Part shown: in pieces, positions 3,932 to 38,760 of the stretch | Layout of the letters: the number at the start of each line of letters is the position of its first letter | Position numbering within the stretch: the first letter of the stretch is position 1 | NCBI GenBank assembly: GCA_964016885.1 | Contig: OZ024763.1 | Span: 16,864,001-16,928,000, forward strand | Direction of reading: 5' to 3' | Source of the DNA: Eledone cirrhosa | Taxonomy: Eukaryota | Length of the DNA: 64,000 nucleotides | Program-made: the position numbers and the translations under genes | The notes under the pieces: model-generated | The model's database searches: none | Told to the model about the DNA's origin: nothing | The model's input: the letters and a program-made list of their open reading frames with translations, nothing else

Positions 3932-3968
3932 TCTTCTGATGAAGGACTAGCATCCGAAACGTTACCCT
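3932..3968 (+). ncRNA. Minimal hammerhead ribozyme motif (degenerate), family H3, in module ~3860-4050
   Basis: tctt CTGATGA a gga ctagca tcc GAAAC GTT; 3' strand of stem I damaged; module homologous to 21030-21220 (minus). Confidence 0.55.
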
Positions 3969-4197
3969 CTTCCAGCTATATCAAGCGTTAACCTATATTC
4001 CTTCCATATACTGTACTGATTGTGTTGTTATTTCTGTTTACCTTTTACATATATATATAAATATATATATATATATATATATATTAGAAATGACTTCTAC
4101 AGGACTAGAACTGTTTCATTCTAAGGAAATCATCAGTACCTTACTTACTGTGGTTAGCCCCAATTGAACCCGGGATACACACACACACATATATATA

Positions 4198-4513
4198 TCA
4201 TCATCATCATCATCATCATCATTTTATATCCGCTTTTCCCTGCTTGCAAGGGTGGGAAGGGAACTGATTCTGGCTTGATTTCTACAGCTGGATGCCCTTC
4301 CTAACACCAACCTCATTTACAGTGAGTGCTGGGTGCTTTTTTGCCGTGGCGCCTACACGGCCACTTTGCAGTGGAATGATAGGGACCCCAGTCCCTAACA
4401 TCTCATTTCTACAGCTGAGTAAACTGGAGCAAATGTGAAATAAAGTGTCTTGCTCAAGGAAACAACACATCACCCGGTCTGAGAACTGAACTCACAACCT
4501 TTCGATTGCAAGG
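4198..4513 (-). mobile_element. SINE family B, 5'-truncated
   Basis: Reverse complement of the 1641-1980 family; abuts the RTE fragment. Confidence 0.85.
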
Positions 4514-4515
4514 CA

Positions 4516-5572
4516 TTCATTGCGTTTCATGCACATCACGTGACCATACCAACATAGTCTTCTCTCGAGTAAATAGCATCTGATCCCTCTTATTCCTAAT
4601 TTCTCACTTAGTTCATTTATGCTTTGCTGTTCGCGTATATTACTATTACACATCCAGCGGAGCATGCAAGCTTCGTTTCTCTCCAGTCTGCGTATATCCT
4701 CTGCACACAATGCCCAGGTCTCACTGCCATGTAACATTGCTGTTCGTATGCAGGCATCATACAGCCTGCCTTTCATTTTTAGAGAGAAACCTTTAGCGGC
4801 CAATAGTGATATAAGCTCTCTGAACTTTTTCCATCCCGTTCTGACTCTAGCTTAGCTACTGTACTTTCAGAGCACCCTCCACCACTGCTGATTTCGTCAC
4901 CCAGGTAACAGAAGGTGTCCACTATTTCTATAGAACCCATCTGGGCAATGAAATGAGCTAGTATTCTGTGGGCACTTGCTGCTACTTATTGCACCTGAGT
5001 ACCGGCCACATATAAAATCTATATTCTTAGTTAGCTTACCTGTGATCCCACTACATCTTTTATGCACCCATACTTTGCATTTGAGACATAAAATGGAGTT
5101 TCTGCCTACTCCTTTCCTACACACTGAGCATGGCCATTTCCCAGATGGGACCAGTGCCCTATTTTCCTTCCTACATATTAGAACTGTAGTCTTAGACAAG
5201 TTAATTTTAAGGCCTTTTGATTCTAGGTCATGCTTCCATGTTTGGAATTTCTTCTCTAGTTCAGCCATTGATTCGGCTATGAGCGTTAGAAGTTCCCATG
5301 GGCAGCCGGTCTTGAACTCCTCTGTTATAACCTGGAGGGCGATAATAAATAGGAGGGGGCTAAAGACAGAGCCCTCATGAACACCAACTTTTACGCTAAA
5401 CTCTTCACTATATTCGTTGTTAATTCTAACCTTGCTGACTGTTTCTTTATACATGGCTTGTATAGCTCTCACAAGCCATTCGTCAATGCCTAGTTTTCTA
5501 AGAGCCCACCAGATAATGGAGCGGGGGACTCTGTCAATGGCTTTCTCCAAGTCTACAAAAGCTAAGTATAGA
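4516..5572 (-). pseudogene. RTE-clade LINE reverse transcriptase fragment, decayed
   Basis: LYLAFVDLEKAIDRVPR...GVHEGSVFSPLLF...PWELL (YADD deleted)...C/H finger...KGRLYDACIRTAMLHGSETW...LCWYGHV; frameshifts. Confidence 0.9.
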
Positions 5573-5577
5573 AGTTA

Positions 5578-35401: not shown

Positions 35402-35497
35402 GAAGTTCACTTTGCAATCATTAGGACTCAGGTTCAATTCCACAGCCAGATGTCTTGGATCAACCCATGCCTTGTGTGTGACATTGGGTAGATGGAA

Positions 35498-36085
35498 AAT
35501 GATGATTATGATGATGATGATGAAGCTAATAATGGTGATGGTGGTGGTGGGGGATGATGATAATGATGATAGCAATAGTAGTGATGATGGTGAAGCAGGT
35601 GATGCTGATGATGATGACAATGATACTAGTGATTATAGTGTTGATAATGATAATGATGATGATGATGATGATGATAGTGATGATGATGGTGATGGTGATG
35701 ATGTTGATGATGGTGATGATAATGGTGATGGTATTGATAGTGACGATGGTGATGGTATTGATAGTGATGATGGTATTGATGGTGATGGTATTGATAGTGA
35801 CGATGGTGATGGTGATGATGGCATTGATAGTGACGATGGTGATGGTGATGGTGACGATGGTGATGATGGCATTGACAGTGACGATGGTGATGGTATTGAT
35901 AGTGATGATGGTATTGATGGTATTGATAGTGATGATGGTGATGATGATGATGGTATTGATAGTGATGATGGTGATGGTGATGGTATTCATGGTGGTGATG
36001 GTGATGGTATTCATGGTGATGATGTTGATGATGGTGATGGTATTGATGGTGATGATGATGGTGATGGTATTGATGGTGATGATGG
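35498..36085. repeat. (GAT/GGT)n trinucleotide tract
   Basis: Direct inspection. Confidence 0.9.
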
Positions 36086-36344
36086 CGATTTATTAGAAAA
36101 ATATTTCATGTGTTAAGGAAGTAATTGACTGTTGCTGAAAAGAAAGAAAGAAAGAATAAGAAAGAGAGAGAGAGAGAGAAAGAAAGAAAAGAAAGAGAGA
36201 GACAAAGAAAGAAAGAAAGAGAGAGAGGGGGAAGAGAGAAAGAGAGAGAGAGAGAGAGAGAGAAAGATCTCTCTATTTTTTTTATTCTAAAACATTTTCT
36301 GTCCTTTTTATCGACTTGGATTAATGCATAATAATTTATTGCCT

Positions 36345-38180
36345 TGTATATATATATATATGTATGTATGTATATATATATGTATGTATGTATGTTTGTA
36401 TGTATGTATATATATATATATATGTATATATGTATATATATATATATATGTATATATGTATATATATATATATATGTATATATACATATATATATATGTA
36501 TGTATATATATATATATATATATATATGTATATATACATATATATATATGTATGTATGTATGTATATATATATATATATATATATATGTATATATATATA
36601 TATATATGTATATATATATATATATATATATATATATATGTATATATATATATATGTATATATATATATATATATATATATATATATGTATATATATATA
36701 TATATATATATATATATATATATATATATATATATATATGTATATATATATATATGTATATATATGTATATATATATATATGTGTATATATGTATATATG
36801 TATATATATATATATGTGTATATATATATATATGTATGTATATATATATATATATGTATGTATATATATATATATATGTATGTATATATATATATGTATG
36901 TATATATATATATATATATGTATGTATATATATATATGTATGTATGTATATATGTGTGTGTGGTCATATATATATATATATGACCACACACATATATACA
37001 TACATACATATATATATATGTATACACATACAAACGCAAACACACGTATATATATATGCATATAAAAACACGTATACACTTACATATGTAGATAAATGCA
37101 CACACATACAGTACCACCTCACAGACACACACACATATATATATATATACGTATATATATATATATATGTATATACATATATATATATATGTATATATAT
37201 ATAGAGAGAGAGAAAATAATCCATTTTTGTAGTTTCAGTGATTTGTTGAATTTATTCAATATATGTTGTTTTGTGTTGTCTATATATAATTAAGTGGTGT
37301 ATATATATTATAAACATAGGGTTTATAATATATGTGGGGTTGAGTAAAGTTGTATATTATACAGTTTACATATATACATACACACATATATATATATGCG
37401 TGTATGTATCTATATATATATATATATATATATATATGTATGTATGTATATATATATATATATATATATATATATATATGTATATATATATATATATACA
37501 TATATATATATGTATATACATATGTATATATATATATATATACATATATATATATATATATACATACATATATATATATATATATACATATATATATACA
37601 TACATACATATATATATATATACATATATATATGTATATATATATATATATATATATATATATATATATATATATGTATGTATATATATATATATATATA
37701 TATATGTATGTATATATATATATATATATACATATATATATGTATATATATATATATATATATATGTATGTATGTATATATATATATATATATATACATA
37801 TATATATGTATATATATATATATATATATATATATATACATATATATGTATATATATATATATATATATATATATGTATGTATGTATATATATATATATA
37901 TATATATATATATGTATGTATATATATATATATATATATACATACATATATATATATGTATATATATATATACATATATATATGTATATATATATATATA
38001 TATATATATATATGTATGTATGTATATATATATATATATATATATGTATGTATATATATATATATATATATACATACATATATATATATGTATATATATA
38101 TATATATATATACATACATATATATATATATATATATATATATATATATATATATATACATATATATATATATATATACA
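36345..38180. repeat. Long (TA)n/(TATG)n tracts
   Basis: Direct inspection. Confidence 0.95.
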
Positions 38181-38391
38181 CACTTTGATTACTTCTACAG
38201 GTAATATTTATTAGAATGGTGTTGTGTATACATATATATATATATATATATATTTATGTTTGTTGGTTCACCACTGGATAGAACTGGTCATTTGGTGTGG
38301 TCAACCTCGATGTAATATTATGGAGAGCACTCAACGTAATGCAACTCACCCGTCTTCGTTTGTGTTGTTGGTGGTGCGAGTATGGAGTTAA

Positions 38392-38760
38392 TTATTATAA
38401 AATAACAGGAGGCTGGACTGGTGTAATTCCTTAAAAGGTTTATTATACTAAGAACATTTCAATGACCGGGTTCAGTATGAATCCGGTGACATCATCAGGT
38501 ATTCAAAATATAACAAAGGAATATAATAGACAAAATCCATGGGGCTGAAAAGCAGATACATTAGGGCGGCCGAACATTTAGCAGCTTCTAGCCTGGTCAG
38601 CCGCCCTCAACCATGGATTTTGTCTATTATATTCCTTTGTTATATTTCGAATACCTGATGATGTCACCGGATTCATACTGAACCCGGTCATTGAAATGTT
38701 CTTAGTATAATAAACCTTTAAGGAATTACACCAGTCCAGCCTCCTGTTATTTTATAATAT
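38392..38760. mobile_element. Family H2 fold-back module with two hammerheads (38445-38502 minus; 38651-38708 plus)
   Basis: Arms ~38392-38543 and ~38610-38760; atac CTGATGA t gtcaccggattcatactgaacccggtcatt GAAA tgttct TA gtat. Confidence 0.8.

Follow-up and report, generated by a model that had tools for sequence, protein, structure and literature searches.

The window analysed here, a 64-kb stretch of the 3.0-Gb Eledone cirrhosa genome (C24:16864001-16928000), contains 16 short motifs that are, as judged by core, stems and stem III, minimal type-I hammerheads with predicted self-cleavage. The favoured reading, to which a probability of about 0.85 is assigned, places these motifs in the 3′ pseudo-long terminal repeats (pLTRs) of several families of Penelope-like elements (PLEs) and takes the copies in the window as end pieces, likely the result of reverse transcription that broke off prematurely at a TA-rich insertion site. 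The window has a G+C content of 36% and abundant microsatellites. The 16 motifs make up 12 insertions, eight single and four head-to-head inverted pairs (Table 1), and fall into several families, as an earlier note on this DNA had proposed: ten motifs are A-like (A1, A2, A3 and one further copy), two belong to family B and four to family C.

The earlier note had listed these 16 motifs, and at every one of the places the core CUGANGA...GAAA is present on the strand named, inside or adjoining the position given. Altogether the window holds 22 such cores, against a mean of 2.9 and a maximum of 8 in 200 local dinucleotide shuffles. A strict filter on stems I, II and III is passed by 12 motifs in the window versus 0.06 in the shuffles (maximum 1), and by 11 of the 16 listed motifs. 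Core 3936 fails because stem I lacks 3 nucleotides (nt) and stem II has a mismatch, core 8129 carries UG instead of UH at the cut site, core 23558 has a short stem I, and cores 38498 and 38655 have lost the self-complementarity of stem III. Core 13999 owes its pass solely to (TA)n that has taken the place of the 3′ arm. No motif with the U3-A8 core variant passes the filter in the window.

Stem II varies among copies while its pairing is kept, which agrees with the earlier description. Covariation was computed on nine distinct A-like sequences, eight from the window and one family-G copy from elsewhere, with a shuffle control that ignores relatedness; the stems of B and C were seen by folding only. 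In the A-like set, 15 stem II cells are changed on both sides, a value reached in 0 of 500 shuffles, and the corresponding count of pairs is seven, reached in 23 of 500. Stems I and II of the set are paired in 92% of cells. The short stem III, noted earlier as often self-complementary, has this property in most copies of all three families, with ATATATAT in 72 of 85 A copies, ACGT in most of 69 B copies and ATGATCAT in ~70 of 110 C copies. An origin of the motifs by chance in AT-rich repeats would be compatible with the ~3 cores expected at random and with the lack of an Rfam match, but this explanation is refuted by the excess of strict motifs over shuffles, the stem II covariation and the fixed place of the motifs in PLE ends, and its probability is negligible.

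The fixed place was shown for families A and B. Ten of 30 selected A1 copies extend upstream into a shared AT-rich sequence that leads to an open frame for reverse transcriptase (RT) and a GIY-YIG endonuclease, and a GIY-YIG frame lies 0.5 kb upstream of one B copy. Reciprocally, when loci were sought with the endonuclease alone, 17 of the 25 obtained for A and 20 of the 25 for B had the module in sense no more than 1.5 kb downstream, plus one partial case each; these counts include the seed loci. The A1 ends lie ~1.1-1.4 kb behind the endonuclease and the B ends ~0.4-0.6 kb. Locus L205 (B) has the order core, 625-amino-acid (aa) frame, core, with the cores 3455 nt apart, and locus L206 (A) has a 637-aa frame with a core behind it and an inverted copy in front. 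The features expected of PLEs are present: pLTR tandem, inverted 5′ copy, optional tail and 5′ truncation. The earlier note's placement of minimal type-I hammerheads in PLE pLTR ends is borne out by these modules, which lie behind PLE open reading frames (ORFs).

The Pfam RVT_1 model matches the B protein only below cut-off and does not match A. The A protein contains DKT and CxCx5C, which are published marks of the Hydra clade, and CxxC and CxH are seen in locus L117 across a frame change. The B protein has a Cx4CxxC linker of the Neptune type. By protein motifs, not by tree, A is Hydra-type and B is Neptune-type; an initial label of 'Nematis-like' was replaced by Hydra-type after comparison with the published motif list. 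On the strength of their matches, the A1 and B modules of the window are 5′-truncated 3′ ends of coding PLEs. The term 'non-autonomous' used in the earlier note thus does not suit these five of the 16 motifs, and is retained for the four C motifs, which derive from a unit without a PLE ORF. The A2-like copies in the window are 79-87% identical to the ends of coding elements.

A first look at the genome gave at least 1767 A, 3163 B and 1710 C candidates. Counted by one method, the window yields 15 A/A2/B/C copies, compared with 45 from a 730-kb sample placed at fixed, hence non-random, round positions elsewhere, so that the window is ~3-4 times denser than the sample. The 'dense swarm' of the earlier note stands in this relative sense only; the copies are scattered across the whole genome. 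Of the 45 sampled copies, 33 lie in 450 kb of small chromosomes and three in 150 kb of the largest. Roughly extrapolated from this non-random sample, the genome total would be on the order of 10^5 copies.

The insertions share a characteristic anatomy. Among unselected A/B/C copies, 36 of 38 begin no more than 140 nt above the core, and the 3′ ends fall at two places, termed the short end and the tail end. (TA)n is found at the mapped 3′ end in 47 of 60 unselected copies, in support of the (TA)n targeting claimed earlier, and 22 of the 60 form 11 inverted pairs, ten of which are tailed on one arm only. The copies in the window are end pieces of 140-300 nt. Just past the short end, ACTCC...GAGTGCT is common to A, A2, A3, G and C, and the tail of another family, W, carries a GCTC...GAGC variant. 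Family B has no tail, and 48 of 57 B ends run directly into TA/CA repeats. Short modules of this kind might instead be self-propagating mini-elements, with a promoter in the pLTR, solo ends that are transcribed and recopied, and 5′ ends that mark transcription start. Such a promoter has been proposed (PMC3846280), the 5′ ends of A1 and C cluster at a single hairpin if that hairpin is where the query starts, and no long copy was seen among the A2-type copies examined. However, the 5′ ends of unselected copies lie anywhere between about -10 and -140, so that the clustering is in part produced by the choice of query, and some selected copies continue into a long element (10 of 30 for A1, 13 of 30 for C); propagation as mini-elements is considered unlikely.

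Family C is likely a non-autonomous PLE. Walking upstream from the extended C copies closes a loop, in which one arrives again at a tail and a hammerhead, those of the previous copy; the hammerheads repeat at a distance of 2046 nt in L246 and 2273 nt in L248. When loci were found with the piece just past the C tail, 17 of 30 had the hammerhead upstream, and 16 of the 30 kept to the unit over at least 1.2 kb. Four PLE proteins gave no match to the interior of the C unit in overlapping sets of 25, 30 and 30 loci, and the sole recurring frame is a low-complexity one of 84-109 codons. Copies on many chromosomes have the same ORF-less interior at 83-90% identity, and a sister family, C2, which is 65-80% identical to C, is ORF-less over the 0.9-1.3 kb seen. 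The classification of C follows from the lack of a PLE protein in the unit together with the ORF-less sister family. Rfam yielded nothing relevant on the C unit, and no extended stretch of 3′ sequence is common to C and the four coding families compared. A tail-motif match with A-type families, recognised after the fact, suggests that a Hydra-type protein may mobilise C in trans. Only short C ends, not the full unit, are present in the window.

Could C be what is left of a PLE that multiplied in coding form and then decayed or underwent internal deletion? The C ends have full PLE anatomy, and the searches list the best 40 matches only. The ORF-less interior common to the C copies and the ORF-less C2 imply, in contrast, that the non-coding form itself was copied, which leaves the remnant explanation quite unlikely. 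Candidate ORFs beside C copies in L331, L342, L327, L388 and L397 were rejected as separate insertions, being set apart by repeats or part of other families, and a tandem array on C4 proved to be a duplication of 6 kb, 99% identical and lacking a hammerhead (one period read). A 160-nt motif recurs inside the C unit (L246 1890-2045 and 2165-2313, a duplication in C; L350 797-959) and is kept in C2 at 77-84%. It has no Rfam match, and a 22-mer from it has 61 exact matches in the genome. Its predicted three-way junction is 96% paired, with covariation not above shuffles (55 of 500), and is treated as a lead only.

The head-to-tail C repeats, ~2.05-2.27 kb apart, also bring to mind a non-LTR retrozyme system, in which paired hammerheads release tandem units as circles and these are then reverse-transcribed. 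The earlier note had spoken of a retrozyme-like system, a 310-nt array with a D-like core exists elsewhere in the genome (L388), and a preprint derives retrozymes from PLE pLTRs (10.64898/2026.07.22.740005). Nevertheless, the window contains no head-to-tail array of hammerhead units: among the 16 motifs, the nearest spacing on the same strand within a family is at least 623 nt and irregular, and the pairs in the window cannot dimerise in one transcript because their arms lie on opposite strands. The copies display the truncation, inversion and tails of PLEs, and the published retrozyme units are ~300 bp (PMC7229834) or 51-972 bp (10.64898/2026.07.22.740005) as against ~2 kb for C. A retrozyme system is therefore judged very unlikely, and the modules are better understood as PLE ends.

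By analogy to published PLE work, the RT-GIY-YIG protein would bind its own RNA and nick AT-rich DNA, and complementary DNA synthesis would start at one of two internal sites, giving either the short end or the tail end. The template RNA was presumably uncut at that ribozyme, because the copies span the cut site. Reverse transcription would usually halt no more than ~140 nt above the core, often at a hairpin, where fold-back may generate the inverted pairs, and C would enter the same cycle in trans. Since cleavage with a self-complementary stem III would call for another copy on the same strand or for help from a protein, the single and inverted copies may be mostly inert, and the window copies would represent by-products of the PLE cycle. 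PLE insertions are 5′-truncated, with partial tandems, inverted ends with a one-sided tail and a preference for (TA)n (PMC8557442). Inverted pLTR junctions have been interpreted as self-priming, and pLTRs as able to carry unrelated DNA in trans (PMC3846280). Two internal RT start sites bound the tail, uncut RNA serves as template and the ribozyme needs protein (PMC11167929). Minimal hammerheads occur by the thousands, singly or in pairs on opposite strands, and show weak cleavage in dimeric form (PMC4209133).

Several points weigh against the assignment to PLE hammerheads. Rfam hammerhead models, the check that the earlier note had recommended, gave no match over the window at gathering level and none at E<=10 when a single copy from each of the three families was searched; in an E-value scan of the whole window, the best 150 of 575 matches were all microRNA matches in microsatellites. 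Published minimal motifs were detected with a relaxed descriptor. Minimum-energy folds of B or C monomers and dimers did not yield the hammerhead fold and are regarded as uninformative. Core positions are barely more constant than their neighbours among A, B and C copies (0.017-0.025 vs 0.034-0.041), which is expected for copies that decay after insertion. For seven motifs (A2, A3 and core 20545) no long copy or parent was found among the loci examined, and none of the A2-type copies reached far upstream; because the A2 references are short, long A2 copies are invisible in the unselected sample. Finally, within the best 40 matches listed, neither the C hairpin nor two pieces from the interior of the unit, C2 or the internal 22-mer led to a coding parent, and such a parent could be rarer than these matches reveal.

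The GIY-YIG remnant that the earlier note had seen at 42701-43472 is real and lies on the plus strand, but is longer than described (Table 1), with the GIY-YIG open frame at 42861-43472. It belongs to family W, full copies of which elsewhere have a 713-aa ORF that is Hydra-type by its motifs DKT, CxCx5C, CxxC..E, CxH and RWR. The CUGANGA core is absent from all 8 ends of the W pLTR that were compared across 5 loci, and the W pLTR does not match the 16 modules. The remnant was accordingly rejected as the parent of A, B or C. W copies are very numerous, and the W pLTR holds CAGAAGA-stem-GAAA, a possible degenerate core.

Table 1 Features of the window (coordinates from the first base of the 64-kb stretch; core positions give the first core base).
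Feature	Position	Strand	Remark
Family B end, core 3936(+), damaged stem I	3836-4048	+	93% to 3′ end of coding element L205
A-like subfamily A3 end, core 7506(+)	7420-7612 (approximate bounds)	+	passes strict filter
A2 inverted head-to-head pair, cores 7997(-)/8129(+)	7804-8233		tail on minus arm only
A2 end, core 9294(+)	9262-9400	+	passes strict filter
Family C end, core 9531(-)	9427-9604	-	87% to end of non-coding unit L246
Family A1 end with tail, core 11096(-)	10896-11180	-	88% over 295 nt to 3′ end of coding L206
A1 inverted pair, cores 13999(-)/14110(+)	13955-14246		hairpin joint; (TA)n cuts minus arm
A-like end, core 20545(-)	20436-20600	-	85% to L206 end; passes strict filter
Family B end, core 21142(-) intact	21024-21222	-	91% to L205 end
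Family C end, core 23558(-)	23455-23650	-	84% to L246 end
A2 inverted pair, cores 32316(-)/32400(+)	32116-32507		tail on minus arm only
C inverted pair, cores 38498(-)/38655(+)	38246-38760		~160-nt tail, minus arm only
Truncated W-family PLE copy: RT-region end, GIY-YIG, partial 3′ untranslated region (UTR)	42699-43897	+	84% to full copy L035
Short W ends	8292-8378, 11614-11721, 55494-55623
Family D	4095-4200, 8788-8831	-
Family D	15215-15393		inverted pair 15287-15393
Family E	16262-16500		damaged inverted pair
Family E, core 46838(-)	46691-46860	-	passes strict filter
Near-perfect 190-nt palindrome	15817-16004		adjoins (TA)n
TA-embedded short repeats	8495-8630, 9791-9862, 10105-10311, 11935-12044, 23093-23387, 47022-47159		fold-back ends, no CUGANGA core
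SINE-like family headed by transfer RNA (tRNA)	1642-1963, 4223-4514, 21513-21834, 23953-24337, 45145-45461, 47211-47530		Rfam tRNA match at 47216-47279
30-nt minisatellite	25747-30466		158 copies
248-nt tandem repeat	17772-19207		5.8 copies

Other repeats of the window, including copies resembling short interspersed nuclear elements (SINE-like), are also listed in Table 1. Family D has a tail and a CUGAUGA..GAAA core without a stable stem II; an inverted D end directly precedes a Hydra-type ORF in L388 and L404, a possible parent. On the reverse strand of L388, positions 1-870 form a head-to-tail array with a period of 310 nt and three D-like cores, which looks like a true non-LTR retrozyme array. 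The family E core 46838 is absent from the list in the earlier note. The palindrome is likely another inverted PLE end without a core. Elsewhere in the genome, L221 9460-9850 contains an inverted hammerhead pair of family J with a long stem I and a canonical type-I look, and further hammerhead families F, G, H and I occur in L031, L032, L034, L212, L225 and L226; in L212 and L032, an RT-GIY-YIG frame of 773 aa is followed by F after 250-310 nt. With a slightly different strict filter, the 730-kb sample holds 57 motifs.

For PLEs, minimal hammerheads have been published before, and so have inverted ends, tails and the targeting of (TA)n; the phenomenon is known in many animal genomes. The metazoan PLE pLTR hammerheads (PMC4209133) resemble the present motifs in being type I with a short palindromic stem III, in forming several families per genome and in comprising thousands of single motifs from truncated PLEs besides opposite-strand duals 100-700 bp apart; in contrast to them, the self-complementary stem III of A and C measures 8 nt, and their stem II is long and contains an internal mismatch that is fixed. 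The Hydra clade as described in PMC8557442 shares with A and W the C-terminal GIY-YIG, DKT, the CxCx5C linker and (TA)n insertion, with W also CxxC..E, CxH and RWR, and with A the hammerhead. Its size of 'generally <3 kb' is exceeded by A, which has a 1.3-kb UTR, and by W, and hammerheads are given there as universal in the clade, whereas W is without the CUGANGA core. The Neptune clade (PMC8557442) and B are alike in the Cx4CxxC linker, the C-terminal GIY-YIG and the core-ORF-core tandem, and differ in that B ends have no tail.

The Penelope units of Adineta vaga (PMC3846280) and PAc of Anolis (PMC11167929) offer close parallels in their head-to-head inverted pLTRs, palindromic junctions, one-arm tail, two RT starts, uncut RNA template and non-coding DNA carried in trans between pLTRs; the tails here are ~90-160 nt versus 30-40 in those elements. 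Family C has several traits in common with non-autonomous Chlamys elements such as MRC1 (PMC8557442) and with the retrozymes (PMC7229834; 10.64898/2026.07.22.740005): it is non-coding, forms pLTRs, repeats head to tail and bears a hammerhead. The units of retrozymes are small and likewise arranged head to tail (PMC7229834; 10.64898/2026.07.22.740005), and the 2.05-kb C unit is more than twice the largest unit in the preprint, where one of nine tested dimers was active (10.64898/2026.07.22.740005). The squid genome paper, where it counts 235 Rfam hammerheads, gives no link to PLEs (PMC6962438). No description of the present families, or of a 2-kb hammerhead-flanked non-autonomous PLE, was found in the literature; Repbase, Dfam and supplements, which lay outside the search, may hold them.

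The value of this system as material lies in a coding Hydra-type, a Neptune-type and a non-coding family that occur together, in the two discrete 3′ ends and in the tail motif that families share, an arrangement that makes the RNA recognition signal of the PLE enzyme testable. The very abundant W family, which has no canonical core, likewise makes the importance of the hammerhead testable. Three leads are worth following: the lineage of C and C2, the tail stem that families share, and family W with its missing canonical core. As a tentative proposal, somewhat short of an even chance, C and C2 may represent an old lineage of 2-kb elements, non-coding and flanked by hammerheads, that parasitise Hydra-type PLEs and retain no more than the RNA signals required by the enzyme, namely the ACTC/GAGT stem past the short 3′ end, shared with the coding family A, and the conserved 160-nt internal domain. 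If true, such a lineage would point directly to the cis signal for PLE reverse transcription.

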